IMG/VR virus record: IMGVR_UViG_3300013121_000016
Span: 39,170 to 103,169 of that record
DNA length: 64,000 bases
Strand: one strand, 5' to 3'
Origin: a virus
Lineage: Duplodnaviria; Caudoviricetes
Shown: positions 3,205 to 64,000 of the stretch, one piece after another
How the letters are laid out: each line of letters opens with the position of its first letter
Numbering within the stretch: the first letter of the stretch is position 1
Notes under the pieces: model-generated
Told to the model about the DNA's origin: nothing
The model's database searches: none
What the model saw: only the letters and a program-made list of their open reading frames with translations
Program-made: the position numbers and the translations under genes

Positions 3205-4810
3205 AAAAGTCATATCAGGACAAGAACTACAGGACGGATTATCAAGAGGAGTCGACATCCTTGCCGACGCTGTAGGTTCAACCCTGGGCCCACTGGGCCG
3301 AAACGCTATTATTGAGACTCCTTACGGAGCGACTACCGTGACTAAGGATGGAGTGACAGTGGCTGAGCTTATTGATCTTGAAGATCCTATCGAGAACCTT
3401 GCTGCTCAGATCCTTAAGCAAGCTGCACAGCGAACAGCCAAGGTTGCCGGAGACGGCACGACCTCTGCTACAATTATTGCGCAAACTCTCTATCAAGAAG
3501 CCCGCAAGCTTATTACGTCTGGAGTAGCTCCGATTCACATCAAACAGAGCTTCGAGCGGTTCCTAACCCAAGTTATTCCGCTCATCAGAGATAAGTCTTT
3601 AGAGGTCTCTACCAAAGAGGATATCTATCAGATTGCTCTCATCTCAGCTAATAATGATGCGCATATTGCCAGTCTTATTGCTCAGGCAATGGAATATGTT
3701 GGAAAGGATGGGACTATTACATTAGAGGAGTCAAAGACTGGGACCACTGAAGTTACACTTGTTGATGGTTACGCTTTCGAGCGTCCTTACGCGTCTCCCT
3801 ATTTTGTTACTAATCCTGCGAAAGGCGAAGTAGAATTGGATAACCCACTCATTTTCATTACAGATAAGAAGCTTCGCTACACGCAAGAGATTATTCCTAT
3901 CCTGGAACTTGCTCACGCCAATTCTCGTCCACTGCTGATTATTGCTGATGATATTGAAGGCCAAGTCTTACAGACCTTAGCAATCAACAAGATCTCCGGG
4001 ACTATTAAAGTATCAGCCTGCCGTGCACCTTCGTATGGTGAGAATCGTCTTCAAGTCTTACAGGATATTGCAGCGCACACTTCTGCTACTGTTATCTCAG
4101 AGTCTTCGGGCCAGCGCATTGAAGACACTACTTTTGAACAACTAGGCGAAGCTGCTAAAGTTCGTTCAACTCGTAACGAAACTATTATTATTGATGGAGC
4201 TAAAGATGAAGCACGTACTGAAGAGCGCGCAGAGCAAATCAGACTTGCTCTTAAAGACTACACCGGTGACTCTTATTACCACAAGCAATTACAAACACGC
4301 CTCTCGAAACTCACAGCCAAAGTGGCTATCCTACATGTTGGAGCAGCAACGGAAACTGAACTCAAAGAGAAGAAGGCGCGAGTTGATGATGCACTCCGAG
4401 CTACGACGTGCGCTGTCCAAAAAGGATATGTTGTAGGTGGTGGTACTCTTCTTGCTAAACTTTCAAAACAATTTGCAAATGAAAACGACATCATATCGAC
4501 AGTTTTCGCCAGAGCTCTTTCGGCGCCGCTTCGCAGAATTGCTCAAAACGCTGGCACATCCCCGGATCTCGTCCTTGCGAAAGTACTTGAGGAAAAGAAT
4601 GAGTTTTATGGCTACAACGCGTTAACTAACGAGTATACTGACCTAATTGTTGCCGGGATCATTGATCCTACCCTGGTCGTTGAACAAGCACTACTTAACG
4701 CAGTCTCCGCTGCAAACATGCTAATTCTATCTGCTACTGGTATCTACAACATAGACCGCACGCCGCCCTACTCTCCCGGTAATTTAGGAGACTTTCAGTC
4801 AGAAGAATAA
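3197..4810 (+). CDS. groEL: chaperonin GroEL (Cpn60), phage-encoded
   Basis: TLGPLGRN, VTKDGVTVA, AGDGTTSAT, ISANND, VGAATETELKEKKARVDDAL, GIIDP motifs; no GGM tail. Confidence 0.97.
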   Translation: MARKVISGQELQDGLSRGVDILADAVGSTLGPLGRNAIIETPYGATTVTKDGVTVAELIDLEDPIENLAAQILKQAAQRTAKVAGDGTTSATIIAQTLYQEARKLITSGVAPIHIKQSFERFLTQVIPLIRDKSLEVSTKEDIYQIALISANNDAHIASLIAQAMEYVGKDGTITLEESKTGTTEVTLVDGYAFERPYASPYFVTNPAKGEVELDNPLIFITDKKLRYTQEIIPILELAHANSRPLLIIADDIEGQVLQTLAINKISGTIKVSACRAPSYGENRLQVLQDIAAHTSATVISESSGQRIEDTTFEQLGEAAKVRSTRNETIIIDGAKDEARTEERAEQIRLALKDYTGDSYYHKQLQTRLSKLTAKVAILHVGAATETELKEKKARVDDALRATTCAVQKGYVVGGGTLLAKLSKQFANENDIISTVFARALSAPLRRIAQNAGTSPDLVLAKVLEEKNEFYGYNALTNEYTDLIVAGIIDPTLVVEQALLNAVSAANMLILSATGIYNIDRTPPYSPGNLGDFQSEE

Positions 4811-7050
4811 TGATTTTACCTTCTAATCCTAAAGATTTCTTACTTAAAGAAATTCCAGATTTCCATCCTCTTTCTGCATCTTGGGCTGCTTTCTGAAGAG
4901 AGCAGTATCGATACTGCAAGGAGGGCTATTGGGTGGGTGGCACTTGAATGCCGCCTGCCCTTTACTATTATGCGAACTTTGGAACTATTAAGAAGAACAT
5001 AAAGTTTTCCTCAGCCAAAGTTTACGATCGACCAGACCTTCGAGATCTGGAATGGGACCTCTTCTATCACTACAGTGAAGCAAGAGGTTTTTCTGGTTTT
5101 AAGTATGATGACGTTTATTCGTCACACAGGATACTACTTGATCCTGACGTAACTGACGATTTTTTACTTCTTAATCTTCCTGAGACACTTAATTCTAAGG
5201 GAGAACGTAAGACATATGTGCCTGCGCGAGATTACATGCGCAAGCTACATCCCACCGCTCTTGGCCCACCGCTCTTTGACAACGAGAAGAAGAACCTTAT
5301 GCTTCTCGGCTCTCGTGACTTAGGTAAGTCGTTTGCTGTCGGTGTAGGGATGGTTGGTCACATGTTCCTCTTTCCGCCCGCTGCCAATCACACCAAACGT
5401 ATTCCTACTGAGGTTCTAGTTGGAGCATCTATTTCTGACAAGTCTCGAGATCTTCTAAAGAAGACTAAAGACTCTTTTGACTTCCTTCCGGGTAAGCGCA
5501 CTATCTCTGGTCGCACTTACCCTTCGCCATTTTATAAGCAGTACTCTGGCTCTTGGTCAGTAAACTCGGATATAAAGGCTGAATATAAGAAGAAAGTGGA
5601 TGGTCGTTGGGATACTGTTGGTAGTCGTGCTGTTATTAAACACAGGTCCTTCAACGAGAATCCGTTTGCTGCTCAAGGTACCCGCCCCGACCTTATGGTC
5701 ATTGAAGAAGCAGGTATGGCTCCCGAGCTTAAAGACATTTATGTTCACTCAGTGGATGCTCTTCGTCGCGGTCTTACCAAGACTGGTACTCTCCTTGTAC
5801 TTGGTACTGGTGGTGACATGGCTAAAGGTACACTTCCAGCCTCTGAAATGTTTTACGAGCCTGAGAAGTACGACTTCCTGGCTTTTGAAGACATTTATGA
5901 GCAGCGCGGCAAGATATGTTACTTCATACCAGCCTACTATTCGCTTGATGAATTCCGTAACGCTAATGGATATGTTGATGTAGAGAAGGCGACTAAGAAA
6001 CTTCTCAATGTACGTAAGCTCAAAGGAGGCGACTCGGGTGCGTCTACGGCACTCGATATGGAAATGCAGTATCGTCCTTTGGTGCCGTCAGAGATGTTCC
6101 TATCTAAGACAGCAAACATCTTTCCTTTTGCGGAATTGCGTCGCCGCCTCTCGGAAATACAAGCTACCTCTACTTACGAGAAACTAGAAAAAAAGGTAGA
6201 TCTGTTCTTCGATCCGTCGGCCAAGTCCTACAACGGAGTATCTTACGAGATTAACGATAGACTTAATCCAATTACTACGTTTCCTTATGATGGAGACGAT
6301 AGAGAAGGAGCTGTTGTTATTTACGAGTTCCCACAGCTTATCGACGATAAAGTACCGCAAGACGCCTACATTATTGGTTGTGACCCGTATAAAGATGATA
6401 CACAGGAAGGCCAATCGCTCGCCGCAATTTACGTCGTAAAAACCTCGAAGTACTTCTCCACTATCGGTCACGATGAGATAGTTGCTTCATATATAGGACG
6501 CCCATACATGGGTAAAGTGATTGTGAATGAGATACTTCACAAGCTGTCACTATTTTACGGCAACGCCAAGATTTACTTCGAGAACTCAGTGGGTAATGTC
6601 AAAGATTACTTTGAGCGCGTTACGCGCCTAGACTTACTTGCAACACAGCCCACGACTCTTTTCAACAAGAAGGCTTCCTACAACACTTCTCCGACACTTA
6701 TTTACGGTTATCCCATGCCCAATCAACGAGTTAAGTGGGAGGCGCTCCAGTACTTGCGTACGTGGCTTCTTACCGACCGAGGTGATGGTAAGCGCAATTT
6801 AGATCTCATATCTGACCCAGCGCTTCTTCAAGAGCTAATCTCCTTTAACCTTGACGGCAACTTCGATAGGGTGATGGGCTTGGTGGGTTGCGTTATTGGA
6901 CTGGAGGAAACCTTCAACCACACAAAACGATCACAGGAGCGAGAAGTATACTCTTCAGCTCTTGATTTAGAGATAATATCAAAGCTTACAAATAACAAAG
7001 CTTTATTCTATGAAAACTTTCCCAAAGCAAAGACTTCCATATTCGCATAA
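4810..7050 (+). CDS. terL: terminase large subunit, 746 aa with 2 TGA=Trp
   Basis: ATG 4810 overlaps the groEL TAA; in-frame TGA at 4894 and 4945 give AAF[W]REQ...EGYWVGGT[W]MPP; Walker A-like GSRDLGKS, Walker B MVIEEAG, LGTGG, RNase H-type YIIGCDPY and NFDRV. Confidence 0.92.
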
Positions 7051-9472: not shown

Positions 9473-9484
9473 ATAATTTTGTAT
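9473..9484 (+). promoter_or_regulatory. ATAATTTTGTAT motif (contains the Bacteroidota TAnnTTTG -7 consensus)
   Basis: An identical 12-mer recurs at 27408-27419; both lie in rare intergenic gaps just before an ATG. Confidence 0.35.
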
Positions 9485-10526
9485 GGAAAATCACATAGAA
9501 GATCCGCTCGAGGAATTTATCGCTGCTGGCATAGTCCAGAAGGATGCCTCTAATAAGGACACACCGTCTCCCGAAGATTTACTTCTCCAAGACGATGACC
9601 CCGAGCCCCCTTCTGAGGATAACGATCCCCCTATTCACGATGATGAAGACTCTGAAGAAGTACAAGCTCAATACGAGTTCCTACTTTCCACTGGGTTCAT
9701 CCAGCCTCCAAGCGAAGACTACGAGTTTGACGGCAAGGCTGAAACTCTTGAAGAACTTATCGGACAATCACGTCGATCCGCAGAGAGCTCAGGCATCAAC
9801 AAACTCTGGGCAGCGCTTTCCCCAGAATTCCAATCCGTAATTGAGTACGCACTCAATGGCGGCCAAGATCTCGAAAGCTTCTACAGAGAATACTCGGCAC
9901 CTGATTTCTCGTCTATTGACATTAAGAAACCTGAGAATCAGCGTAGGGTCATTCGCGAATACTTTAAACAAACTACGCCGTATACGGATGAGCGCATCGA
10001 TAAAATGATCGCGCGTTTAGAAGAAGACGGTGAACTGGAGAGTGAAGCACTCCAGACAATAGAAGACCTTCAAGACTTAAGGGAACAGCGTAAAGCCAAG
10101 TACCTAAAAGAACAACAGGAACAAGAAAGAGAGCTTAGAGCTGAAAATGAACGCAAGACTAACGAGTTAGTTAACGCAATTAACACGTCTAACTTTATTC
10201 ATCAGCAGCGTCGCGACAAAGTGCGCGCTTTCTTTTTTAATCCTATTAAAGTTAATGACCAGGTAACAACTGGTTTCAATGAAGCGCTCCGAGCGATACG
10301 CGCCAACCCGGAACATCAAGCTCAGCTAGCTGACATTTTACTTGATTACGATCCTAGGAACGGTATATCACTCGAACGTATCGAAAAGCGAGTTAAATCT
10401 AAAGCCACATCAGACTTTAAATCAAAGCTCGGACGAGTCACTAACCCTAAGTTAACGACTCCTTCTTCCTCAGGGAAGAACAAACAATCTGACGACAATT
10501 TTTTATCTAAATGACTTTCTGCTTAA
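9483..10526 (+). CDS. acidic scaffold-like protein preceding the MCP (347 aa with TGA=Trp near the C-terminus)
   Basis: D/E-rich N-terminus and coiled coil; TGA 10512 read as W extends by WLSA to TAA 10526, 3 nt before the MCP ATG. Confidence 0.7.
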
Positions 10527-10529: not shown

Positions 10530-12002
10530 ATGGCAACTCCTCAATCCTCCTTTATTATTAAACAGTTGGAAGGCTTTGGTGGCTCCTTTGTAGATTCCGA
10601 TTACTTGGGCGCTTCCTACGAGATAGGTAAACCTCACGTATTCGAAGGTACGCTCATGAAAGTGTACTCTTCACAGTCCATGTTCTTCGGTCTTAAGCCG
10701 CTGATCTCCATGACTGGCGCAAAAGGCGGTACTGTTGAGATCCCTACCGAAATCTACCGTTGGTCACTGCAAGGCGCTGAAGAGCGCACTGCACGTAGCC
10801 TTGAAAACCTGGAATCGTCCAACGACACCCCGGGCTTGAATGGTACGACCTTCCGCATCAAACTTGACATCGACTACTACAAGTATCCGGATGTCCTCTT
10901 CTCGGAAGACAATGAACTTCCGCTTGCTATCCAAGAAGGCCCGATTCCTGACGGAACTGGCTTCATCTACATTGTTCGCATTCAATCGGACAATCCTACT
11001 CTCTACCTGCCTAACACGTACCTGGAACCAGGTCGCCAGTTCAACAAAGTTTGGACTTCGACTCCTTCAGAAAACAATCAATGGTACGGCACACAACAGG
11101 CTCCCAATACCTTCCAGCTCGAAGCTCAAGTTGGCTTCTTCTCTCAAGGTTTGGAAGTAACTGACAAGGCTATGCGTGAAGACGGTCGCCTGCTCATCAA
11201 ATTCCTCCACACGGATGCATCTGGTAACTCCACAGTTATCAACAAATTCATCCCTTACTACGAGGCTAAGATGCAAGACGAACTGTACCGCTCCATGGAG
11301 GTTAACCTCATGTACGGTAAGCGCTCAACCCTGCCGGGCAAAGAGAAGTACTGGACCAAAACTGGTGCTGGTTTGCGCGAGCAACTCCGCGATTCTTGGA
11401 TCGAGACATACTCCTCAGCTCTGACAGCTAACATGCTTCAGGACTACCTGATGAATATTTTCTTCGCTCGTGAAAATGAGCAGAACCGTTCGGTTCGGGC
11501 TATGACCGGTACCTTGGGCTCACTCTTGTTTCACAATGCGCTTGTCGCCATCTCCAACGGTTTCTTAACCGTTGACTCTCACTTCATCTCTTCGGCTCCC
11601 AATGGCTCGGCCGTTCCTGGCTTGGCGTATGGCGCTCAATTCACGCGCTACCGTGGACCAGAAGGTATCATTGTAGACTTGATGAAGAATGGTATGAATG
11701 ACTCTACGCTGTACTGCAAACGTTTCCACCCGCAGTATCCTGATATGCCGATTGACTCAGCTCGTATGACGTTCCTTGATTTTGGAACTTCCGGCGGTCA
11801 AAACAACATCTCGATGCTCAAAGTGAAAAACTCGTTTACTTACGGTGTTGTAGAAGGCATGGTTGGTCCTAACGGTCCTAAGACTTCGGGCACGACTTCT
11901 TCGCTCAAGCATTCCTACGATGTGGGTATGAGTGGCTCGGCTGGTATCTGGGTTAAAGATATCACGCGCTGCGGTGAACTCATCATGGACTTCGAAGGGT
12001 AA
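10530..12002 (+). CDS. major capsid protein
   Basis: 490 aa; position after portal and scaffold; YRWSL and TGAGLREQL motifs typical of crAss-like MCPs; C-ending codon bias suggests high expression; 6 TGG and no TGA. Confidence 0.85.
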   Translation: MATPQSSFIIKQLEGFGGSFVDSDYLGASYEIGKPHVFEGTLMKVYSSQSMFFGLKPLISMTGAKGGTVEIPTEIYRWSLQGAEERTARSLENLESSNDTPGLNGTTFRIKLDIDYYKYPDVLFSEDNELPLAIQEGPIPDGTGFIYIVRIQSDNPTLYLPNTYLEPGRQFNKVWTSTPSENNQWYGTQQAPNTFQLEAQVGFFSQGLEVTDKAMREDGRLLIKFLHTDASGNSTVINKFIPYYEAKMQDELYRSMEVNLMYGKRSTLPGKEKYWTKTGAGLREQLRDSWIETYSSALTANMLQDYLMNIFFARENEQNRSVRAMTGTLGSLLFHNALVAISNGFLTVDSHFISSAPNGSAVPGLAYGAQFTRYRGPEGIIVDLMKNGMNDSTLYCKRFHPQYPDMPIDSARMTFLDFGTSGGQNNISMLKVKNSFTYGVVEGMVGPNGPKTSGTTSSLKHSYDVGMSGSAGIWVKDITRCGELIMDFEG

Positions 12003-12517: not shown

Positions 12518-12784
12518 ATGCGCAAAAAACTTAAACAGTCATCATCCTCTTCCAACTTCTGGGTTGGTCTAGCCACCCTAGGATCAGCCGCCGTCACAGC
12601 TGTTATAACTGTACTTACCTCTGATCCAGAAGCGATCAAAACAATGACATTGACTACATTCAGTACAACTATACTGATGCAAATGTCAAATATACTTTAT
12701 CATTTAAATAAGAATACTGCGATACCCACACAAGGATTGGCAGGTCCCCATACCCAGGGGGGTACAAATCTGGATACACAATGA
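12518..12784 (+). CDS. small two-TM protein, holin-like
   Basis: Basic N-terminus, SSNFWVGL, two hydrophobic segments; ends in TGA within an ATGA overlap (or TAG 12799 if read through). Confidence 0.5.
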   Translation: MRKKLKQSSSSSNFWVGLATLGSAAVTAVITVLTSDPEAIKTMTLTTFSTTILMQMSNILYHLNKNTAIPTQGLAGPHTQGGTNLDTQ

Positions 12785-13773
12785 ACAACAGAAACTTAGT
12801 ATTTATTTACACAATACCGCGTCCTTCGGCGCTCGGTCTATCTGAATGGACCTCAGACACCTCAGGTGTCAAACTTAAGAAAACTAAGGTTGGTAAGACT
12901 GCCGATTACATAAGAGCACTTTATTCGCCCACTATTGGCGGTCTTGCTAATCACATATCTTACACACCGTGGATGGAAGCAGGTGAGCCTCAGCTCGATG
13001 CAGCCGGCAAGCCACAAATGCTCCAAACAAAGTACGAAGAGAAGTGGAACCTCCCTAAAGGCTTTTTACATAACCGTCCTTTTGGTTTCCATGTTCACTC
13101 AAATAAGGCCCCTGAAGAACTTTCTTTTTTCCAGTCTTATCGCTGGAAACTTGTTGATGGCTGCACAGTCTTAGACAAGTCAAAGATGGAAGATGAAATG
13201 GGATATTTCACGATGTTAGCTTCGTCTAAAGTAGCTAACTCAGAGCGTGAGTATCGCATGCATAAATGGCCCAAAGCTCAATGGTATATTGCGCTTGAGA
13301 ATGAAAGCGAAGAAATTAAGTACGAAAAGTCACTCGCCAAAACGCACGCGTACGCAGCCCTTCACTCAACAGAGTTAACGGACAACTACAAGCGCAAATT
13401 GGTCTCACTCCTAGGCTTAGTAGATTCTACCTCCTCTATCTCACAGCAACTTATCCACAATACGCTCACGGCATTCATCGAAAACTCTTCTGCTGGTCCT
13501 GGCTCAAACATAGAAAAGTTCCAGTATTACGTCAACTTACTTAAAACGCAAGATGGTCGTGAACGCTTCGAAGCTATGTGGACTCTTAAGCAAGCAATTG
13601 ATTTGCGTATTATTGATGAGCGCCAAGATACTTACACTTGGAAACGTCCTTCAGGAACACCGCTACCAATTGCTGATCGATATTCAGAAGCCGTAGATTT
13701 CTTTATCAATCCTAAAAAGTCGGTTGAACAAGAAGAGATCCAAAGCCAAATAGACGCTAAATTACCTCGTTAA
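12781..13773 (+). CDS. conserved crAss-like protein downstream of the MCP (function unknown)
   Basis: 330 aa; KWPKAQWYI and LKQAIDLRII motifs; positional conservation. Confidence 0.65.
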   Translation: MNNRNLVFIYTIPRPSALGLSEWTSDTSGVKLKKTKVGKTADYIRALYSPTIGGLANHISYTPWMEAGEPQLDAAGKPQMLQTKYEEKWNLPKGFLHNRPFGFHVHSNKAPEELSFFQSYRWKLVDGCTVLDKSKMEDEMGYFTMLASSKVANSEREYRMHKWPKAQWYIALENESEEIKYEKSLAKTHAYAALHSTELTDNYKRKLVSLLGLVDSTSSISQQLIHNTLTAFIENSSAGPGSNIEKFQYYVNLLKTQDGRERFEAMWTLKQAIDLRIIDERQDTYTWKRPSGTPLPIADRYSEAVDFFINPKKSVEQEEIQSQIDAKLPR

Positions 13774-14510
13774 TGACTAACGCAGAACTTTATTACGCAA
13801 TAGACATCAATCTAGATCGCATTGCGACACTTGCGAATCCCGATCTAAATGTGGCGGAAAAGGACTGATTATTAACCGAGGCACAGCTGATGCTAATTAA
13901 GCAGCGCTTTTCCGCTCTGTCCAATCCTAAAAGAGCTGGCTTTGAGCATACTGAAAAGCGTATACAGGACTTAAGCTCTTTAGTAATTAAATCGCCAATC
14001 CAACCTCCGATTATTCCGACTGTCCTTGACACAGGTGTAGTCGAAGTTGACCTGGCCCAAACAATCTATCCTTACTTATTTATCATCTCGGCTTTTGCTA
14101 CAGTTGAAATAAGTGAAGATTGTCTTAAAGAAATTCCACTTAAGTTCATACAGCACGACGATTACAGAGAAATCCTAAGGGATCCTTTCAACTCACCTTC
14201 ACAAGAGTTTCTCCCTTATAATCTAGGATTAGCCTCGTCAAGACTAAATCCGTCAATGTTCGTCTATACAGGCAGCATCGACTCAACAGCAGTCAGTTCT
14301 GTGAGCGTAGAGTTCATAAGACGTCCACCAAGAGTATCATCCGGTACTTACACGTATTTGGATGGTATTACTTATCCGCAAACAGGTCTATCGGTACCAG
14401 AGCACTTACAACTTGAAGTTGTAGACTTAGCCTGTCAACTTGCGGCGCTTTCCACTCAGAATCCTGAGTACATACAGCTGCGCAATCAAAAAGTACTGAT
14501 CAACGAATAA
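13773..14510 (+). CDS. head-tail ring/adaptor-type structural protein, 245 aa with 1 TGA=Trp
   Basis: ATG 13773 (TAATG coupling); TGA 13866 gives AEKD[W]LLTEAQ; GFEHTEKRIQDLSSL and PEHLQLEVVDLA motifs. Confidence 0.75.
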
Positions 14511-14539: not shown

Positions 14540-15895
14540 ATGACTTCTAATAACAGACGTAGAATGGAGTCGTTCCTCGTGAACCTCGCCGGAGCTACTA
14601 CAATCCCGGTTTCGACCACTACTCTTGTTAACTCCTCCACCGGAGCTGTTAACCTGACGAACGGTCAACTCGGTATCGTTTCTGTTTCGCCCTTTGGCAC
14701 GATTGGTCACAACGTATTCACTGATTCGACCCCAACTGTAGCAGAGAACCCGATCATCCAGATCGTTCAAGGTACTCCGTACTCCGCCTCCCCGGCAACG
14801 GCCTCAGTGAAATACCCTCTGTGGGCTCGTCCTTTTGAGGCGTCCTCCCCTATCGATGGCCGTAACAATTCCCTGATGGTTACTAAGCAAGACTTCCGCT
14901 ATGGCTCACATTCGTTGTGGGTACTTGGCGAACCGTCCGCTACTACAACTGGTCAGATCAACGTTCTTGATGAAACCGAATACGCTCTCCACATCGCCTT
15001 TGCAGGCCGTCGTGTAGAATATCAGTACTCGCTGGAACAAGCAGCTTCGCTGTCCGTCTCCGTAACTACTCCGAACTTCACTGATCTGTCGGCTACTTAC
15101 ACCGAGCCTGTAGACTGGATTGTACAAAAGCTTGGTTACGAGATCAATCGTAACTCACAGTACTTCCAACTCGGCGCCCGCTTCCAAGGTTCCGATCCTA
15201 TTGTCGCCTTCGCAGTGTCTGATGATGCTGGCGGTGACCAGGAAATCGCAGCTCTGACTGTAGGTGCAGTTGTAGACGTATTCGTTTACAATGGTGTTAC
15301 GCGCACCATCACGTTGACCAAAGAGATGGTTGACACTCTTCAAGAGGCCGCTACCGCTTCAGGCTTCACCTACATTACCGCTATCGACCTTTCGACTGCA
15401 GGCACTGCTGGTGCTACAGTGGCGAACTCAGGTCTCTTCATCATGGCTCTGGATTCTAACACTGCCCACATTGACTACATCCCTGAGATCAAAAATCGCA
15501 TCCGTGTGGGTCTTAAGCGCGGTTTTGACTACTCCACGGTAACTCTCGATGAGACTGTTGCTGCTGACGAAGGTCAAGGTTACGCTCGCCAATTGGAACT
15601 GCTGTACCAAAATACAGCCGGCCAGCGCAAGTACGCTCAAAAACACACACTTGATCCGGTAATCAAATTTGATTCGCCGATCGTAAGTGGACAAGAATAT
15701 GTCGTGTATAACATTTTACACGGCCGTTCGGAGCAAATCGATCACGCAAACATCGTTTATTCTCCTTTCCGTGAGATAGTGTGTATTCCACGCTACTCCT
15801 CGGGCACAACAACCAACGCCGTCATCGCGACTTTCGATACGGCAATCAACGCCTTCTTGGCCTCCGCAGGTTCTTCTGCAATCGTGTCGATCTAA
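14540..15895 (+). CDS. abundant virion structural protein (auxiliary capsid/decoration-like)
   Basis: 451 aa, Thr/Ala/Val-rich, MCP-like codon bias, followed by a terminator. Confidence 0.6.
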   Translation: MTSNNRRRMESFLVNLAGATTIPVSTTTLVNSSTGAVNLTNGQLGIVSVSPFGTIGHNVFTDSTPTVAENPIIQIVQGTPYSASPATASVKYPLWARPFEASSPIDGRNNSLMVTKQDFRYGSHSLWVLGEPSATTTGQINVLDETEYALHIAFAGRRVEYQYSLEQAASLSVSVTTPNFTDLSATYTEPVDWIVQKLGYEINRNSQYFQLGARFQGSDPIVAFAVSDDAGGDQEIAALTVGAVVDVFVYNGVTRTITLTKEMVDTLQEAATASGFTYITAIDLSTAGTAGATVANSGLFIMALDSNTAHIDYIPEIKNRIRVGLKRGFDYSTVTLDETVAADEGQGYARQLELLYQNTAGQRKYAQKHTLDPVIKFDSPIVSGQEYVVYNILHGRSEQIDHANIVYSPFREIVCIPRYSSGTTTNAVIATFDTAINAFLASAGSSAIVSI

Positions 15896-15917
15896 TTTTT
15901 CCATTCAAAGTTCTTCC

Positions 15918-15972
15918 AAAAGGGGTCTTAAGGGAGTCGTTTCTACGTCTCACTCTAGACCCTTTTATTTTT
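15918..15972 (+). terminator. intrinsic terminator
   Basis: AAAAGGGGTCT...AGACCCTTTT stem followed by a T-rich run. Confidence 0.6.
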
Positions 15973-15986
15973 TAACAACTTAACAA

Positions 15987-16481: not shown

Positions 16482-16484
16482 ACT

Positions 16485-52100: not shown

Positions 52101-55100
52101 AAGATGCAGAAGGTTACACCGAAGTTTATGTGCCAGCACATTACCGCCAGTTCTTAAGAGAAGGCGATAAGTTTGTGCTTGGTGGAAAAGATGGTATAGT
52201 TGCTTTCCGTATTCCGTCCTCTAACTACCACTCGTTACTAGCTCTTAAAGTCAAAGGATTCTACCCAGCACCGCAGTCTTCTGACTCAAACATTATCATC
52301 GCTCCGGGCCCTATAGTATACTACCATGGTTCTGATAACGACGTAGATACGCTTTTCATTATTCGCAAGAGCGCCTGGAATAAAGATGAAGATCTTAACG
52401 GGGTCGTAAATAAATACTTACCCACTCCAGAAACTGAAGCCTTAGTCTTTAGTCCTGACAAAATGGTGGGATTTACTGATGATAAGCCTGACACCATTGC
52501 CGGCCAACCTCTGCATTACTATTTAGAAAGAGCTCTCATCAAGATGGCACAGCTTTCCGAAGACATTCGCAAGCGTTTGGATCAAAGAAATCTACCACAC
52601 GAGAAAGCCCTCTCCCTACAGGGGGAACTAAAACTTCTTGATAAAGAGATAGCTCTGGTATCAGATATAGCAATGATGTCTGCCAAGAACGCAATTATTC
52701 ATTTGTTTTCTACAAACTTAAGAGATCCTAAGAATCGTCCTGACCTCTTAACACCTATTACCTTCAACGCAGTTTCCAGTTTAAAGTCAGAGACAGGGAA
52801 TACAGAAGGCCCTGATTCGCTTATGGAAACGTGGGCTAAACTGGAAGCTAAACGCAGAGGTGAAGAGGTCTCAGAGTTTCCTTCACAAGAAGAAATTGAT
52901 GAGCTACTCTACCCTGAAGGCGAACTTTCAGACTACGACGTACAAGAACAAATTAAGTCTAATACGGATGCTGGTGGCGCAATGGTAGGTATTGCAGCTA
53001 ACACTCTCAAGATGACTGCCTACTCATTCTCTAGTGAACCGATCTCCAGCATCAGAAATGTAAAGACTGGCGAAGTCTTGGGTACCAGAATGCGCGAGAA
53101 AGAATTCCAAACCTTACTCGAGGAGAATCAAGTTACCACCGTAGAGCAGCTCTTAAGAGTAAATCCTGATTGGAAAGTAGAAACTCGCAGTGCCCCTTAC
53201 CTTAAAGCCCCCTACCAGATTAAGTATGACAATAAGGTGCTCGACAAGTTCCGACGTACAGCAATAGACTTTAACAGTACGACTGAAGATGACACCTTAT
53301 CCTATGGTGGTTACCCAGTAAACATCTTCGAGGTTTATGATACTATTGAGAACCTTGCTATTGACAACGTAAAAGAACAAAAGCTCTTTATTCTCGGTCT
53401 TACGAATGCCAATGCCAATGCATTTCTTTGTGCCATTGCTTACGGTCTTCCGCTGATAGACGTATCGAGAATATTCAAGACTCCACTTCTAAAGGAACTC
53501 TCCCTTGGTCGTAGGCTTGAAAAAGCTCAGTTATTCGTAATGGCAAATGACATCCTTGCAAAGCTCGCCACTCGCTATGAGAACGGAGAAGTAGAGGCAA
53601 TAACGAAAGGCATCGAAGCCTTTACAGATGAACATAGGGCCCAGCGTATAACTAACGCAATCTCTCATGACATCCGTAGAGGTACACCGGTAGCCGAAGC
53701 TATTAAAGAAGTAGTATTATCTAAGCTCTACCTTTCTTCTAAGGTTCTTGATGACATATACGTAGGTGAGGCATCGGAAATAACTAAGGAAATCTCTGAC
53801 GCATTAGCGCTTAACTTTGCTGCTCGTCTACTTGGTGTAGGAGAACAAATGTTTAAGCATGCACAAACAGCCGGGATGCTTAAGCGTTACCCTAACGCTA
53901 AGTGGCGAATGGATCAGGTGAATGAGAACATTCACTCGCTTGTTAAGTTCGCAGGAGAAGATAGCATGCGGCGACAAATCTTTAATGAGCACCGTAGTAC
54001 AGTCAGACAGTATCTAGTTGACACTTCACCTGAATACAAAGAATTGATGGTAAAAGATCCATTTCTTGCAGAGAGCTTTATTTCAACCAAGCTGAGCCAG
54101 TTAGAGGAATCGCCAGTCTATTCTGCACTACCCGACAAGCTGGCCAAGGCTTCGTTTGTTAATAGACTACTGCGCAGAAGTGTGTCAAGAGATATGATTA
54201 CCACAGATGCTAACGTATTCAAATCTAATAATCTATTACTTTTGCCTCACTTATACTCGGCATGGCGTGGGCTAGTGCAATTGATAAACTTAATTGAAAA
54301 TGTCTTCCCAATGCACAATCCTAATGTTAAGGAGTTTGCTAAAGACATCCTAGACAGCACTGGAATGTATATTCTACCTTATCTGGAGAAAAAGAAGCTT
54401 GAAGGCGTACAGAAAGAATTTATTAACTTCCTTGCCTCCAACATGTCTATCGACATTGGCTCAGAAGAGGTTAACTTAAGTGTCCCGGCAGAAGAGACGT
54501 ACAACTCTTCGTTAGGTGCTTACTCTGGCGAGGAGGCTTGGTGCCAGAAGTTTATTGACAAGTTTGTCAAGCTTCAAGAAACTTACCCAGATAACTCTCT
54601 TTTGCAATCAGTAGAAGTATCGACCGATAGAAATAGCACACTCAAAAAATTAGTCCTCACTTCTGATAAAGTGTCTAATGAAGAAACCGTTGAACGTCTT
54701 CGTCAAGACTACAGAGATTTACTACATACGCCAGAGAGAAACGTAGCCAGGGATTTATTTAAGTACTCTCTTTTGACTAAGGGAATGTTCTTTGATAGAA
54801 CTTCTTTCTCGCTCATATTTCCATTTGAGTGGGCTGCGGCTTACGCGAAGGCTTTGGACGTACGGCTTCAATCAGTAATCAGCACAGACTCGCCAGCAAG
54901 AACCAAGCTGTCTTTAATTGCTGTGCGCAATCAGTTCCTTTTCCAGTTTGTAAGGAATAACTCTAACGCGCTTTCTTACGTGCAGTTTAAGCCGATAACA
55001 CAGAAGTATGCCAAGGACAGTAAAGGGTTTGATCAAGAGATATACAGAGGAAAAGAGATATTGAATGGTGCTCCAATTTACTTCGATCTTAAATACGAGC

Positions 55101-56263
55101 ACGGAAGTGACTTAGCGCTCCCAAGATTTATCAAGCGCTTTGATGACACTGTGTACATGAAGATTCCTACAGGCACAGAAAATGCAACATATTACCGGGC
55201 AATTACACGCACCACTCGCCACAAGTTCTACTTCTTATCAGATCCATCTGTAGGATCGAGCTTTGATTTAGATCTCTTGTCAGCACAGCAGACTTTACTC
55301 ATTCCGCTAAGTTCTTTAGTTCCCAATGGCTTTAAGACCACTGATAACCTTGAGGAGGGAGAAATTGCGTACATATACGACAACCTCTCTCCACACCCGC
55401 AATCGCTCAAACGCATAAAAGTCGAGAGATTAGCTTCCTCTCTTGGCGGATACAATACGTACACTTACACCCACATTGGAGAAATCACTCTTACAGATGA
55501 AGCCTCTATTACGGAGCTTAGAGAACAATCATTGTCTATTGACTCATCAGTTGATGCACGTGTTGTCACGGTTTCGACCGCTAGAGAAGCCATTGAGAAT
55601 GCACGGAAACAGCGTAATCGTTCAGCCGTATCCTTAGTCAGAGATGATCAAGCTGGAGTAGGTGATAACGTTTACAAGCTAGATATACAAACTATCAATC
55701 TAGATGCAAGCAGTCAAGAGATTGCAGACTATATTGAGCGCGTAATGAAACAGATTAGAAAGATTCCTAACAATGTAATCGTATATACACCGGCAAATCT
55801 TCTTGATCCGTTAATGGATGCTACACCAGACATAGCTAAGAAATTTGCAGAGGCCATCTATGATCGGACTGGTTTTGCCTTCCCTATACTCAGCGAGGAG
55901 AATCTCGACTCACGCTTACCAGAGGCCGCACAACTGATCATCAAACGCAGAGAAATTCTCAAAGCAGTTCTTAACAATGGTGTGTTAGTACAAGAGTCTG
56001 ACAACACAGCACTTGCACCTTATAGAGTTCTGATAAGCGACATTGCGACAACTAACTCGTTTACGAAAGGTAAGATTCGTCAAGGAAATATAATTTCTAT
56101 AGGTCAAGTAAACGGCCACGAGGTGTATGCATTTGTGGATTACGTCACTGATACTTACCTTTATGTTACACCATTCTCTGAAGATGTCTTTATGCTTCTG
56201 CAAGAAGAGCGGTACAGTAACGAAGACTTTTATAAAATTATCGACAACTTTAATAAGTGCTAA
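40163..56263 (+). CDS. giant virion polyprotein (5366 aa with 2 TGA=Trp): membrane-like N-terminus, SF1 helicase-like, zincin-like and two-barrel virion RNA polymerase domains
   Basis: Three track ORFs are in frame, separated only by TGA 43628 and 50189; Walker A APAGAGKT (44120-44143), LLVLDE, YTATSRA; HELFH (48290-48304) plus EERLAE; RNAP motifs TDAEG, MKP, FRIP, GSDNDVD (52334-52348). Confidence 0.85.
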
Positions 56264-59200
56264 TGAAATGTCCATTAATTAATACGCCACACTGGAGATC
56301 ATTGGTTAACAAGTACGGAGAACGTCGGGCATATCTAATGTACGATTTGGATATGCCTGCCTCCTTTATCACAGACCGTAAAGAGGTCTTAAGTGAACTT
56401 GCTGACCCTCTTTTTCAAAATATCCGAGACAGAGTATACAGCTCTCCTCAGATGTTCCTATCCAAATACGACACATACCTTCGCAACATTATAAAAGGTA
56501 CTCCAACTATTGACAAAGCTGTCGATGTCTTTTACTCTCGTGCTAAAGGCATTGGTGGGACGGTTATTGGAGATGTTATACAGACTCCAGGAAAGAACTT
56601 CCTTTTATTTCCTGAGGCAAGCGGTGATTATAAAGCTGCGCCGTCTGGATCTGTTCCACAGAAGATGCAGAACCTTCTAGAGACGCTCTCATCAAAAAGT
56701 GGAATCCCATTCCAAGTGATCAATGACAAGACTCAGAAATTTAAAGGTCGCTACATATTTGACGGGGACGAAAGGATAGTCTTAATCAATCTAGCATATG
56801 CAGACTTAAGCACACCTCTTCACGAGTATTATCACCCGATTGTAAGGCTGTTACATACTAAGAACGAAAAGCTTTTTGACTCAATCTTACAAGAAGCTCG
56901 CCAGGTTGCCGTGGATGATCGTACTGACTCTGAAGAGTTAGTGACAGAATATCTCGCTAAACTAGCTTCTAGGCCTACTTCCACCTTTACTCGATTCATG
57001 AGCTGGCTCACAAGTTTCCTTCGTCGTACTCTAGGAATTACTAAGCCAATAGACAAGCTCAATTCAATTGGCGATTTGCTTAAGTTCACTGAAGACTCGT
57101 TAAGCGCAGGTCTAGAAGAGTACACACTCTCGAAGGCTGACTCAGATCTTATGCAGATTCTTAATAACATGACTTCTAGTGAACGCACTAACTTCAGAGT
57201 TAAGAAGGATGAATCCGGTTTAGACTACGTTGATGCTTTAGCTAAACTAGCGGTAGAGCAAAACGTGACTACTGATGACACTAGTCAATACTATAAGGAT
57301 GCTTCAGGAACGGATGTTGCCGTCCGTCTAACACAATTCATAGGTGATAGAGACTTAGGGGAATTTTCTGTTAAATACAAGGATAAGCGCTACTCATTTG
57401 CAGAATATGCAGCAAGGGAAACATTTAAGCGTCAAGGCTACGATACTAAAGATCTACCAGTAGATGAAGTTACTGACACAGTAATCTTTGAAGGAAACCC
57501 ACTCACCCTCAAGCAGCTCATCGATAAAATCGAAACCGTATTTGCGCAGCAGCGTATTTACGGTAAGATGGTTCACGCATTTATTCAGTATAAGCTAGAG
57601 CGTGATCCACAAAAGAAAGAGCAGGCCAAGCAACTCGCCACAACCTACGCGCTCCAAGCAGGTACAACCTTCGTGTCCTTAGAAACGCACGGGGACCTCA
57701 TAGAGTACGAGCAGAACTTTGAAAAGGTCTTAGCTGTTGCGGGCATCAGGTTGTCGGGCGCAGTTCCTGACAGGGTCGCACCTGAGGCATCTATAATGTC
57801 TAAGATCGTTAAAGACTCTCAAGGGAAGTTTATCGGTACAACGATTGACTCTTTGATTCAACACTCTAACGCTGACGTATCTTTAGTCGACTGGAAAACT
57901 GGTAACATTCTTAATGATGCACTTAGTACAGCAATCATGGCTTACAGTGGCGAATTAAACTTACCTGATTCTAAGCTCAGCAGAGCCTACTTAGAGATGG
58001 CATACCGTGCAGTCATCTTAAAAGAGCACTTCCCCGACATGCGCTTCAGAAAGATCGGCATAGCTAAACTTTCTAAGTCTGGTAATCACACATTTATGGA
58101 GCTAGATCTCCAACCTTACCTGACCCTAATTGGCAACTACTATAAGAAGGTAAATCCTGAAGTCTATGAAGAACTTAAGAAAGCAAACCTGCTTTCAGTT
58201 AAGTCGTACTTAGGAACTAAAGGAGAGCTAGTGCGCGTACTGCCCTATGGATTGCATCTGGCTCCTATGGAGGATCAGTTAGCTTATTTACAGGCGAAAC
58301 TCGATAAGCTTTCCTACGGCATGACTCCTGACCAGATGTCCAAATATCCGGACTTGCGTGAAGAAATTCGCATGTATACGGAAGCAATTCTAGAAATCAA
58401 GAAACAGCCAGGTATGGATCTTGACGAGAAAACGCCGGACATTCCTGGTGTTACAGGACTCACTAAGAACTTCTCTGATATATCTAATCCTAAAGTTCAA
58501 GTACTCCATAAGGAGATTCTAAAAGCTAAGGCCAAAGCTTCAGCGGACACCAGAGCTTTGGTGGAGCAACACGATAAGCTCGCAGCTGAAGTTGTCAAAG
58601 AGTCTGTCGGGATTACTGCTAAGACATTTAAGAAACTTCTAACTATCCCCCTTGTTTACTCAATTATTACTTTAAATGCAGGAGTCCTCATACCTACAAT
58701 TGCAATCGGTTTAATCTTACGTAGATATGGCAAGACTACAAAGGACGTATTTGGATTCATGTGGAAGAAGTCAGAAGATGCTGGTAGGACAGGTTACTTC
58801 TTAAATACTACAGATTTCCATGAAGGGGTGCCACTCACTGCTGCACAGCGGGCATATCGTGACTACTTTGTTTCATCTATGCGCCAAACGTATTACAGTG
58901 TAATGGACGAGGCTGTCGCTAGCACCCAATACGACAGAGTTATCACTCGTGCTGAGGCATTAAATAAACCTGCCGAGCTTCCTGCGGACTTTATGCCACG
59001 TGTTCCCATCGGTGTGAGTGAGATACGCGAGAACCAACCTTACTGGTCAGGATTCTTCGGCTTACAGACTTCAGCTAAGCACTTCGTACAGTCCCAACTA
59101 ACAGATCACTTAGCCAATGCGTATACTTCCGAGGATGGCAGACAACCTATTCCGCTCAAATACTTCGGACACACGGGCTCGGTTACTGTAGAAGAATCGA

Positions 59201-60849
59201 ATCACTCATTCGATCCGACAAAAGCCTATTCAATGTTCATAGGTAATCTAATTTACAAACAGAACTTTGATCACCTTTACAACTTAGCACATGGTGTAAA
59301 GGTGGCTCTTGACATGGAGACAGATGAAGCGGGTAATGCGCGCTACCAAGGACTGACCAAATGGCTGGATCTAGAGATATATTCCCAAATCTTAAATACA
59401 CATAAGCCGAGCAGTTTCACTACTAGCAAGTGAGTATATACTGTTGGTAAGCTAGGATCCAAGATTCTCGATATGGAGGAAGGCACGCGCATTCAACTTT
59501 CACAGGAGAAGATCGTAAATCTGGCAAGGGTAGGTACAACGTACGTAGTCATGGCATTCAAATTAGCTTCCGCCATTCGTAACGGTCTTTTGATCTCAGT
59601 GCTTAATGTCATGAATGCTACACGGATAGGAATATCTAAACTCCTTGGTGTACCACCAGATGACTACACCCCAACCTCGAAAGGTACGTTTGCAGCATTC
59701 TTAGACGTAGCTAAATACTTTGGTCAGAAGATGCAAGGTAAGGAAGACGACTCTAAACTGTGGCAAATGGCTAAAGAATTCGACTGGCTACCCGATAACT
59801 ATCCTTACTCGACAGATCCAAAGAACTTCTTTTCTGAATCTATCAAGTTTAGTCCTAACTCTTACGCATTCATGTTCCACAACTTCGTTGAAACATATGG
59901 AGCTCTTGCGCACCTTTCAATCCTTATGCGCTCATTAAAACTGAAGAATGCGGCCGGAGAGAGCTTCTCTGCCTGGGAAGCCTACGAAGTTAAGGATGGT
60001 AAGCTACAGTGGACGAAAGGTTCACGCGGTAAGGTAGAAGTCTCCGAAGGAGTCTTTAAGGACTTAGAAGGTCTTGATATTAACGAGATTAAAAACATGC
60101 GCAGGGCCTACGAGAAACTTCAAGGGTCATACCGCAAAGAAGAGATGGCTGCTATTGAATCCACTATTATGGGCGGATTCCTCTATCAGTTCAAAAAGTA
60201 CTTCTTCCAATACATGAAGAATCTGTTCGCTTCTCCATTCAAAGATCAGACTGTCGGACAGTACGTAATAAATAAAGATATTACCAGACCTGACGGTGTA
60301 CCAGTATGGAAATGGGAGTCTGAAGTAATGGAGGGACGCTTAAAAGTCCTTGCAGGAGGTATCATGGCTGGAGGCCTGTCAAAGGCTCGCTGGTCTGCTT
60401 ACCTAGATACAGATGCATATAACGGACCTAACACTAGAATAGCCAGACGTAAACATTTAATGGAGTTAGTCAACACTATGCTCTGGATGGCGTTACTGTT
60501 ATTCTTCTTTATGACGATGTTTCCTGACGATGACGATAAGAAAACGTATGCCGCTCGATACTTCCGCAGGACGATGGAAGACGCATCAATGGGACTTAAC
60601 CCTAAAGATCTATTCCAGACGATGTCTAAGCCTGTAGTAGCGCTTGATCGCATCCCCACTATTGGAGATGCTACCTTCGATCTATTTACCGAAGGTGTTT
60701 GGGGTAAGACAACTAGAGACGGATGGCCTGTTGGTTTGAAAACGCTCTCACGTAATACACCAGGAGCGGCTTCAGCTCTTCAAATAAAAGATATACTCTC
60801 AGATTATGATTGGGAAGATAGTGAATCATTATATGGAGTAATGAAGTAA
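56263..60849 (+). CDS. large ejected protein with zincin-like and PD-(D/E)xK nuclease-like domains, 1528 aa with 1 TGA=Trp
   Basis: ATG 56263 (TAATG); HEYYH (56821-56835) plus EELV; G..VH...TIDSL...VSLVDWKTG; TGA 59431 joins the C-terminal part; hydrophobic segments near the C-terminus. Confidence 0.8.
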
Positions 60850-60869
60850 CTTGACCTGCATCAAGACCT

Positions 60870-60906: not shown

Positions 60907-60909
60907 TTT

Positions 60910-61263
60910 TTACTTAGCTGCCTCGACTAACGTCGCCGGACTCATTCATTTTTCCGCTTTGTAGAGGTAATCGGATAGGGCGTACTTTACAGTGACTGTT
61001 TCGATCTTCAGGCTTTCAGCGGCGAACTTGATGATCTGCTCCTTAACGTCGAACTTTCTGAGCTGGCCCGTCTGGAAACCTTCACGCATATTCCCGATTT
61101 CAATGGCGATCGCCAGTTGCTTTTTGTCGGAAGCGCGTTTAGTAGTCGTAACTATCTTGCTGACAAGTTCGACTTTCGCTGCTCTGGGCAGGCTGATAAC
61201 TTCGACTAATTCTGCTACCGCTTCTTCGAACGGAGTAAAATAGACTGCTTCTTTTAAGTTCAT
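60910..61263 (-). CDS. hypothetical protein, 117 aa if TGA=Trp
   Basis: TGA at 60946-60948 read through gives KAEK[W]MSPATLVEAAK ending TAA at 60910, right at the terminator. Confidence 0.65.
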
Positions 61264-61304
61264 ATGCTTTAGTTTGTGGTGCCCATTTGAACACCGGTGA
61301 AAAG

Positions 61305-62050: not shown

Positions 62051-62093
62051 GATAAAGAAATTGGTTATGTAGTTTTCTATCCATATAAAAAGT

Positions 62094-62127
62094 AAAGGGG
62101 GCCCCCGTCATTGGTGAGCCCCCTTTT
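62094..62127. terminator. likely bidirectional intrinsic terminator
   Basis: AAAGGGGGC...GCCCCCTTTT stem with A/T runs on both sides. Confidence 0.65.
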
Positions 62128-62227
62128 GATTAAAGCGGTTACTGGTTGAATATCTTTCTCGTTCTGGCAGAAGTAACTTTTCGATGTCTCTCTGGCTTTT
62201 CACACCAGCGCTTAGTTAAGCTATGCA

Positions 62228-62629
62228 CTACTTAGTTATCTTCCTGTGAAGGATGTAAGCAAGAATGACGACCATCATGATCCCCTCTTCCCCTAAATCA
62301 GGAGCACTTACAGTCCGACGTAGGGAGCGGAGTATCCCTCGAACTCCCCAACGTTTCCACCCATTACGATTCACTGACTTAAACTTTAAATAAGCGTGCA
62401 CTACTTTCGATTGGAACGAGGCGAACGAGTCATCTGTTTGACTTGCAAGGCGGTAAGCTTGATCAAGTTTCGACATGGTTCGCCGACGCAGCGCCTCCTC
62501 GTACTCTTCTTCTGTAAGATCGAGGGCTATAAGAGCAGCCTGTTGCGCGTCAGTGAGCTGTGGCTGGTCAGGTTGGCTAAAAAGCCATGCTTGGGCCCTT
62601 TGAAAAAGGCTCCGAAAGTTTGTCTCCAT
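62228..62629 (-). CDS. hypothetical protein
   Basis: Likely start ATG 62629 (METNFRSL); TAG stop. Confidence 0.6.
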   Translation of the reverse strand: METNFRSLFQRAQAWLFSQPDQPQLTDAQQAALIALDLTEEEYEEALRRRTMSKLDQAYRLASQTDDSFASFQSKVVHAYLKFKSVNRNGWKRWGVRGILRSLRRTVSAPDLGEEGIMMVVILAYILHRKITK

Positions 62630-63122
62630 AATACGTTTCATTCTGCGGTGTAGGTCTTGACCATACTTCGGCATCCTCCGGTAGTTCTACTCCGATCTTT
62701 TCCTCCCACATCTGCTTAAAAACTTTAGATCTATCGAGGACCAATCGGTTTCCGTACAACTTATGGGATGGTATAGCGGGAAAGTACTTGTCGACATATG
62801 CTCTGTCGATTTGTGAATACTTCCCTTCCATGAAGGGCTTAACAACCTTCTCTCTATCTTCTTCGCTTATCGTAAAGACGTAGACTTGATCCCCTACCAT
62901 CGAGGAATAGGTACGCTCAAAGCTCGGAAGTGATTCGAGATGAGTTTTAAGCTCATCGGGTACTTTAGAGTACACTAAGTAAAGTCGATCTCCTCATTGG
63001 GCAGGTCCTGTTGTTTCGGACTCTGCGCCGAGATAAGTGCCGACGTATTCAGCCGTATACGGATCTAGTTTGAGTTTCAATAAAGGTGTCAGGAAACACG
63101 CAGTTTTTGTGCGTTCTACCAT
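62577..63122 (-). CDS. conserved hypothetical phage protein, 181 aa with 1 TGA=Trp
   Basis: ATG 63122 after an A-rich leader; TGA at 62994-62996 gives PAQ[W]GDRLYLVY, joining the track ORF (EGKYS...WEEKIG..LP.DAEVWS). Confidence 0.75.
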
Positions 63123-63351
63123 CGTCGTTTAAATTTAGTTCAATAATTCGAGACTCTAGAATCTCAGATGAAAGACATATTACGTTCTTCACCCCTCCTA
63201 CCTATGCGACCCACCTGATGTAAACAGTAAGCATCAGTGCCACCACTCATCCGAGACCGGATAAAAGCTGCCGGGTACTTGAGCACATAGGTCCGTGTCG
63301 ACATGTAATCCCTCAACGCGAGGAACCCTACGATATGTCAGGTTTTCTGCC

Positions 63352-64000
63352 CTAGGTTCTTATTTGTATTCAAAGTCGTTCAAATCGCCAACCTTCCTCT
63401 TTAAGTTCCGGGATAAGGCGCTCTAATGCCTTGTAAAGAGCATTAGTTCTGTCGTGCATAAGTATGATAGCACCGGGCTGGACGTGACGTTTAATCTGGT
63501 AGTAGATCGAATCATCTCCGTGTTTCATACTGGAGTACTTCCAGTCCCAGGAGTCGATGTTCCAATGGACAATCTCCTTGTTCTTTCCGATCTTCTTCAG
63601 CATGTTATCGTCCATGTATCCCCACGGAGCTCGGAACAAATCAAAGCTGATGCCGTGTTCTTTGGCAATGGAATCGCATCTCTCCACTTCACTCACGTAA
63701 TTCTTCTCCGTAAGCCTGCTATGAGTCATTGTGTGGTTACCCAGCGTGTGTTCCCTGTACAAAGGCAGCATGCCCGGTTGCTTTGCAATAGCATTACCCG
63801 TGAGAAAGAAGGTCGCCCGAGCAGTGTGTTCTTTGAGCAGATCGAGAAATCGCCCTGTCATGTTTGACGGACCATCATCAAAGGTAAGGAATAGTACGCT
63901 GTCCTCGGTACATACGTGAGTTATGCAGTATTCCGGGTATCGATCTGCCTGGCTTTCAAGCTCGGAGATTGCTGTCTGAGCCTTGCCCGGCGGTTGTGGA
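63352..64000 (-). CDS. polysaccharide deacetylase (CE4/NodB family), 5'-truncated
   Basis: All five CE4 motifs: LTFDDGP, GNHTMTH, FRAPWG, DSWDW, IILMHD; the frame is open to the window edge; ends at TGA 63370 or, if read through, TAG 63352. Confidence 0.92.

Follow-up and report, generated by a model that had tools for sequence, protein, structure and literature searches.

Among 243 crAss-like phages, Yutin et al. (PMC7886860) described reassignment of TAG to glutamine (Gln) or of TGA to tryptophan (Trp), with recoding found chiefly in late genes, suppressor tRNAs present, and TGAs occurring even in a PolB gene. Borges et al. (10.1101/2021.08.26.457843) found structural and lysis genes to be alternatively coded and replication genes to be variable in this respect, with suppressor tRNAs located in standard-code regions, and proposed that recoding serves as a timer of the lytic cycle. 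In the Mgcod study, phage genomes combining codes 11 and 4 had TGA aligned with TGG or TGA, and their blocks could be dual-coded, the dual-coded blocks being enriched for replication and transcription genes; of 17 complete code 11/4 genomes, only 3 had a Sup-TCA tRNA. Here, we analyze in-frame TGA codons in a 64,000-nt stretch (hereafter the window) of the IMG/VR virus record IMGVR_UViG_3300013121_000016, which corresponds to bases 39170-103169 of one contig of 103,169 bp; coordinates are those of the window unless marked "genome". The window is very probably the right-hand 64 kb of a crAss-like phage genome that is complete, has terminal repeats and uses two genetic codes in a blockwise manner.

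Frames were scanned with only TAA and TAG counted as stops, each TGA being named by its first base. On the plus strand, 22 in-frame TGAs were found between 4894 and 59431, distributed over 14 genes, with 19 of them well inside the gene and three only 3-12 codons ahead of a TAA or TAG. The interruptions in these 14 genes were always TGA, never TAA or TAG, and never a frameshift. An earlier note, made from the letters of the window without database searches, had counted 21 plus-strand and two to three minus-strand sites and proposed that TGA encodes Trp on both strands. The plus-strand count is thus one higher, and on the minus strand one site (62996) is solid and two (63372 and 60948) are ambiguous; the reading of TGA as a sense codon, most likely Trp, on both strands is borne out by family profiles, homologue columns and coding potential. 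All motifs quoted in the note were found (F[X]REQ at 4894, WG[X]IPEVWEG at 8192, KD[X]LLTEAQ at 13866 and AG[X]ARTAL at 23117), and TGG is still dominant, as it had stated, with 151 TGG against 22 TGA codons in the plus-strand block (a TGA share of ~13% of Trp codons). Also as described, genes close in TAA or TAG: under code 4 this is true of the whole plus-strand array between 4810 and 60849, in which the spacing of neighboring genes ranges from -41 (overlap) to +91 nt (gap). TAATG overlaps, which the note took to be the usual junction, exist at four junctions of the block (4810, 12002, 13773 and 33405) and are not the usual arrangement. Re-calling genes over the whole genome with code 4 instead of code 11, a check that the note had suggested, raised coding density from 92.1% to 95.0% and reduced the number of open reading frames (ORFs) from 127 to 108.

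Coding potential was measured with a codon-usage log-odds model in which stop codons are neutral, calibrated on off-frames that lack TAA and TAG by chance. All segments rescued by read-through scored as coding. For example, the 79-codon extension after TGA 23892, which fills a 255-nt gap, scored +25.5 (segment 23895-24131), where +19 is expected for coding sequence and -10.7 for an open off-frame, and segment 33696-34067 scored +30.0 against an expected +29.9. N-terminal portions recovered by read-through gave +11.9 for the 245-aa protein (39 codons), +32.0 for the 733-aa protein (98 codons, 20445-20738) and +25.2 for the 332-aa protein (86 codons, 24150-24407). The base that follows TGA failed to separate sense from stop codons, T occurring after 2 of 27 sense TGAs and 5 of 18 stop TGAs.

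Profile matches and relatives, namely the syntenic IMG/VR contig G001 (53.9 kb), the metagenome loci L029 and L030, and the proteins P0124-P0126, point the same way. The terminase match to its PHROG profile is unbroken over residues 12-710, across both TGAs, and relatives have TGG/TGG/TGG at column 4894 and TAT/TAT/TGG at column 4945. The portal match is likewise unbroken over residues 3-795, across TGA 8192, a column at which 120 full-length homologues carry 83 W, 36 Y and 1 F. At 13866, within the conserved KD[X]LL.EAQ motif, relatives have TGG, TTG and TTG, and a single G001 alignment spans residues 2-143 of the 146-aa protein with TGG at column 28370. Family profiles, relatives and coding potential agree that TGAs in the plus-strand block are translated as sense codons; read in this way, they restore full-length terminase, portal, muzzle, 1,611-aa, 5,366-aa and 1,530-aa proteins. 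Calling with the standard code splits or truncates the 14 plus-strand genes of the window, including those for the terminase, portal, muzzle protein and 5,366-aa giant protein.

The genome encodes a single tRNA, which the earlier note had overlooked; its anticodon is UCA. The tRNA gene is flanked by the GroES-like and GroEL-like genes near the beginning of the plus-strand unit and precedes every plus-strand gene that has an in-frame TGA, none of the genes before the terminase containing one. The tRNA is 75 nt long and folds into an ordinary 7/4/5/5 cloverleaf with A1-U72, G73 and no long variable arm. In a blastn search against phage records the majority of its matches fell on annotated tRNA-Trp genes (best E 6e-7), and a blastn search against Escherichia coli genomes gave no match. 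Conversely, where relatives have in-frame TGAs, this phage carries W, W, Y, F, F and Q, and once (L030) its own TGA. Judging from these alignments and the tRNA, TGA is most likely decoded as Trp, not glycine (Gly), cysteine (Cys) or selenocysteine. Near the tRNA, at 2057-2339, weak Rfam signals of transfer-messenger RNA were also seen (RF00023 3' end at 2057-2074, 18.5 bits; RF04321, 21 bits).

The earlier note considered the sparseness of TGA to be the mark of an early-stage reassignment, with a suppressor recently gained and TGAs only starting to build up. The low share of TGA among Trp codons of the late block fits such a view, and incipient cases in crAss-like phages were described by Yutin et al. 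(PMC7886860), yet we regard it as improbable. Relatives at 45-60% protein identity (G001/L005, L001, L003 and L030) also carry sparse TGAs, at other positions, with one TGA column common to this phage and L030, and the recoding covers the 22 plus-strand sites plus replication genes. Furthermore, the G001/L002 relative encodes its own, structurally different UCA tRNA. Since distant relatives share sparse TGAs and one has its own UCA tRNA, the sparse recoding is old and long-lived, persisting at low density in the lineage. The tRNA of the relative (L002:4332-4429, equivalent to L005) is 98 nt long; its variable arm is long and its D stem has 6 bp. It matches the tRNA-Sec model RF01852 at 34.7 bits, short of the gathering score, has no structural relation to the Trp-type suppressor of this phage and is located in a different genomic place. 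Because the two differ in structure and place, the clade seems to have gained UGA decoders on more than one occasion.

Some of the TGAs, chiefly those at 43628, 50189, 59431 and 30847, could instead be true gene boundaries, with fusion proteins arising only by leaky read-through. An in-frame ATG does follow each of these four TGAs by 0-19 codons, and the flanking code-11 ORFs resemble separate large genes. Relatives have sense codons at these positions (TAC, TTC, TGG, GAA, CTA and ATA) in uninterrupted alignments, however, which leaves this explanation with little probability. The halves of the muzzle protein match a single profile, phrog_15100, colinearly (profile positions 12-419 and 1123-1352), and one G001 alignment covers residues 1-1372. 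In the 5,366-aa protein, P0124-P0126, L029, L030 and G001 align unbroken across 43628 and 50189, with single tblastn alignments over residues 1-4211 (L030), 8-4593 (L029) and 1-4204 (G001). Column 50189 lies inside the conserved RGDGKK..DAS[X]QSSLL motif and is Y, Y, Y, Y and F in relatives, and column 43628 is F, L, or L next to W. The 1,530-aa protein is aligned singly over residues 1-1513 in L030, with TGG at 59431, and over residues 1-1529 in L029. Because relatives align uninterrupted across the TGAs, 40163-56263 is one gene for a 5,366-aa protein and 56257-60849 one for a 1,530-aa protein.

The 1,611-aa protein is the most heavily recoded, with TGAs at 33693, 33750, 33789, 33957, 33963, 34389 and 34794; in its first 480 residues TGA makes up 7 of 10 Trp codons, the other three being TGG. 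Its N-terminal 520 residues have few homologues, with reliable alignment only around residue 97; the other six TGA columns are poorly aligned, and the sense reading there rests on coding potential (+30.0, +17.0 and +4.9 for the gap segments of the gene). All seven TGAs fall in an N-terminal part (33405-34840) that contains an internal duplication, GGPIDP...TGKDYGV.R.xDGxY, and G001 is without the N-terminal ~1,100-residue part of the protein.

A boundary reading is live only for C-terminal sites, namely 10512, 12782 and 23117 on the plus strand and 63372 and 60948 on the minus strand, all of which we consider ambiguous. At 10512 the G001 alignment ends at residue 339 of the 347-aa protein, and the TGA may be a sense codon or a leaky stop. 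The TGA at 12782 is part of an ATGA start/stop overlap with the next gene (12781-12784), the sole ATGA in the plus-strand block, and may still serve as a stop or coupling signal; sense codon and leaky stop are both plausible. The extension past 23117 scored +3.3, against -1.6 expected for an off-frame, and a search with the 163-aa protein gave no homologue; a sense codon is probable here, but not separable from a leaky stop.

Outside the window, and likewise overlooked by the earlier note, is an ~18-kb standard-code block at genome 16.7-34.6 kb, made up of the minus-strand genes closest to the divergent region, in which 18 genes terminate in TGA, nine of them in ATGA start/stop overlaps. Read-through frames past these TGAs scored as non-coding (-15.4, -12.5 and -13.3), with the frame of the downstream gene positive, and read-through would carry eight of the genes 15-48 codons into the next gene. 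Among the 150 matches listed for one of two endolysin-like glucosaminidases encoded here, nearly all alignments stop at query residue 294-295, which for most of these homologues coincides with, or falls only a few residues from, their own C-terminus. With recoded genes elsewhere and true TGA stops in this region, TGA is both stop and sense codon in one genome, the two uses being separated by block, and the organism-wide NCBI table 4 was excluded on the same stops. One code boundary falls inside a strand, at about genome 16.3-16.7 kb. A greedy code-4 caller over-extends genes in the standard-code block (one gene gained 90 upstream codons containing seven TGAs), and block assignment was therefore made gene by gene; annotation of this genome requires block-wise gene calling with codes 4 and 11. 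The block also holds a MoxR-like AAA/VWA pair and an EAD11-domain protein.

If the host itself used code 4 or code 25, with UGA as sense and no release factor 2 (RF2), the phage would simply mirror it and the TGA stops would be read through as far as the following TAA or TAG. In 10 of the 18 TGA-ended genes a backup TAA or TAG follows within six codons, as compared with 3 of 17 TAA/TAG-ended genes of the same block (Mann-Whitney p = 0.005), and read-through would there often be harmless; alternatively, the backup stops may buffer proximal TGA stops against the phage's own suppressor. A UGA-sense host is nevertheless very unlikely, given the eight genes that would run on in non-coding frames, the nine ATGA overlaps and the glucosaminidase homologues that mostly end at or near the TGA. 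In addition, a phage of a code-4 host would have no need of its own UCA tRNA, the aligned residues are W, Y and F and not Gly, and known Crassvirales hosts are, according to the literature, Bacteroidota with the standard code. Selenocysteine insertion, sequencing or assembly error, and pseudogenes can be dismissed: ARAGORN labels the tRNA 'tRNA-SeC', as it does any UCA tRNA, but its 75-nt type I cloverleaf has 7/5 stems and lacks a long arm, unlike the 8/5 or 9/4 stems and long variable arm of tRNA-Sec, and the Rfam scan reported only the general tRNA model for it. The aligned columns are not Cys, SECIS-like hairpins behind the TGAs were not seen, although no search aimed at them was made, and the interruptions across 14 plus-strand genes are TGA and nothing else.

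Recoding also extends to replication genes in the left part of the genome: the exonuclease, primase, helicase and DNA polymerase each have an unbroken match to one PHROG profile that runs across in-frame TGA(s), and need UGA read-through for full length. The minus-strand block of the window is the tail of this replication module, which runs across the terminal repeat and resumes at the left genome end; in L030 a homologue of the left-end exonuclease comes after the homologue of 62577-63122, and a family search with the minus-strand genes of the window gave no families. Extension of the recoding to the opposite strand, as the earlier note had proposed, is thus upheld at 62996, in this module tail, and does not mean that the genome is uniformly recoded. 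That TGA 62996 is a sense codon is well supported: the L030 homologue aligns over residues 7-164 of the 181-aa protein with TGA at the same column, protein similarity persists upstream of the TGA, and the 42 codons upstream score +8.6. Of the two minus-strand sites near gene ends, 60948 is ambiguous with a sense codon favored, and 63372 could be either stop or sense.

The source record is rated 100% complete, and a 141-bp terminal direct repeat was measured in the genome. Crassvirales markers are present, with crAss-type terminase, portal, major head protein and muzzle protein recognized by PHROG and Pfam on the ~103-kb genome. In the phage collection, the nearest portals come from Crassvirales records, at ≤30% identity (the one looked up, cr60_1, belongs to the Suoliviridae), full-length portals in metagenomes reach 50-76% identity, and the closest of these (65-76%) sit on ~100-kb contigs. 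Taken together, the completeness rating and terminal repeat, the crAss-type marker genes and a portal identity that is low to the phage collection and higher in metagenomes mark the phage as complete and as a deeply branching member of the crAss-like phages (Crassvirales). Scanning IMG/VR with the muzzle protein and with a 2,181-aa segment gave no matches, and neither did a megablast search of 25 kb of the sequence against phage records. In the relative G001 (L005/L038, ~14692-18042), the major head protein aligns in three pieces, ~0.8 and 1.0 kb apart, which suggests that its capsid gene is interrupted by introns or inteins. The 5,366-aa ORF has an SF1-helicase-like AAA_30 domain near residue 1300 and probably represents the giant virion cargo or RNA-polymerase-type protein of the lineage.

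TABLE 1 Genes and sites considered in the window and in the remainder of the genome (TGA positions are first bases unless a range is given)
Feature	Coordinates	Strand	Remarks
GroES-like gene	657-1046	+	phrog_3188
Suppressor tRNA, anticodon UCA	2355-2429	+	ARAGORN; Rfam RF00005, 55.7 bits
GroEL-like gene	3197-4810	+	phrog_5725, E 7e-135
Terminase large subunit, 746 aa	4810-7050	+	Sense TGAs 4894, 4945; phrog_6681, E 1e-98
Portal, 801 aa	7010-9415	+	Sense TGA 8192; phrog_6547, E 3.5e-108
347-aa protein	9483-10526	+	TGA 10512, three codons before TAA
Major head protein	10530-12002	+	PHROG/Pfam; phrog_11589, counted among crAss-type markers
93-aa protein	12518-12799	+	TGA 12782, four codons before TAG
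245-aa protein	13773-14510	+	Sense TGA 13866
733-aa protein	20445-22646	+	Sense TGA 20523; TGG at this column in G001
163-aa protein	22667-23158	+	TGA 23117, 12 codons before TAA
323-aa protein	23163-24134	+	Sense TGA 23892
332-aa protein	24150-25148	+	Sense TGA 24360
146-aa protein	28070-28510	+	Sense TGA 28370
Crassvirus muzzle protein, 1,372 aa	29287-33405	+	Sense TGA 30847; PF25731, E 2e-53
1,611-aa virion or cargo protein, peptidoglycan-binding domain	33405-38240	+	Seven sense TGAs
5,366-aa giant ORF	40163-56263	+	Sense TGAs 43628, 50189; three large ORFs under code 11
1,530-aa protein	56257-60849	+	Sense TGA 59431
Gene	60910-61263	-	TGA 60946-60948, 11 codons then TAA; extension score +2.7
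181-aa protein	62577-63122	-	Sense TGA 62996 (first base, read on minus strand)
Gene	63352-63861	-	TGA 63370-63372, 5 codons then TAG; extension score -1.2
Exonuclease	genome 238-1200	-	One PHROG profile across in-frame TGA(s)
Primase	genome 3968-4954	-	One PHROG profile across in-frame TGA(s)
Helicase	genome 10208-11269	-	One PHROG profile across in-frame TGA(s)
DNA polymerase, family-A-type	genome 13498-15177	-	One PHROG profile across in-frame TGA(s)
Second glucosaminidase (PF01832), endolysin-like	genome 21829-22341 (L034:2829-3341)	-	Ends in TGA
Glucosaminidase (PF01832), endolysin-like	genome 27319-28206 (L034:8319-9206)	-	Domain complete at residue 290 of 295; ends in TGA

As to how two codes might operate in one infection, genes near the divergent region at genome ~38.7-39.2 kb, including the tRNA, would be translated by unmodified host machinery. 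The Trp-type UCA tRNA, charged with Trp, would then accumulate and compete with host RF2 at UGA, so that replication, packaging, virion and cargo genes with in-frame TGA would yield full-length products only after the tRNA is expressed; a TGA density of ~13% would be enough to gate most of the large late genes. Tentatively, and with more doubt than confidence, the two codes could be seen as a distance-graded gate laid out around this one divergent control region. Proximal genes on both strands, including the tRNA and the GroES/GroEL-like genes on the plus strand, would be those that are TGA-free or TGA-terminated, and distal genes (replication on the minus strand; packaging, virion and cargo on the plus strand) those that need read-through. 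The suppressor would in that event license genome replication too, beyond late and lysis functions, and such a gate, if true, would amount to a modified form of the late-gene timer already published.

Several observations weigh against a Trp-decoding, suppressor-timed reading of this genome. Both the amino acid and the charging with Trp are deduced from alignments and from the resemblance to tRNA-Trp, and we infer early and late timing solely from gene content and position. The homologue check for W that the earlier note had called for gave W, Y or F at conserved columns, and elsewhere it did not: residue 97 of the 1,611-aa protein corresponds to Asn both in its internal repeat and in about eight homologues, column 30847 is Glu in G001, and column 59431 is Ile in one relative (L029). 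A search of the genome for RF-1 and RF-2 release-factor domains found none. Lastly, the two endolysin-like glucosaminidases lie in the standard-code block, a misfit with a simple model in which lysis genes are recoded. That replication genes are gated and endolysin-like genes are in standard code is relevant to the idea that late and lytic functions are timed by recoding.

In organisms that use code 4 throughout, such as Mycoplasmatota, and in some mitochondria, TGA never terminates genes and accounts for the majority of Trp codons. The phage shares with these systems the reading of UGA by a tRNA-Trp with anticodon UCA, and differs from them in its ~13% TGA share and in the 18 genes for which TGA is a true stop. 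It resembles the phages of Yutin et al. (PMC7886860) in being a ~100-kb member of the Crassvirales with TGA in the terminase, portal and late genes, a UCA tRNA, and recoding in parts of the genome; unlike in those phages, replication genes are recoded too, one code boundary falls within a strand and not only at a strand switch, and the portal is only ~30% identical to those of named Crassvirales. As in the timer of Borges et al. (10.1101/2021.08.26.457843), the suppressor tRNA lies in a standard-code region upstream of recoded structural genes, and the most heavily recoded gene, that of the 1,611-aa protein, carries a peptidoglycan-binding domain, whereas the RF-1 domain search found no gene for release factor 1 (RF1) in this phage and its two glucosaminidases end in TGA within the standard-code block. 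Block structure and the alignment of TGA with TGG or TGA in relatives are shared with the Mgcod genomes, and in part of the standard-code block a backup TAA or TAG follows the TGA by a few codons, which makes that part effectively dual-coded; the phage differs from those genomes in having a UCA tRNA and in replication genes that need read-through. The block-wise arrangement of codes 11 and 4 has thus already been published for crAss-like phages, and this genome opens no new question in that regard. It adds a deeply branching Crassvirales lineage to the phages in which sparse TGA codons go together with a UGA suppressor of the Trp type, and is distinctive in combining such a suppressor with gated replication genes, a change of code inside one strand, and glucosaminidases in standard code.

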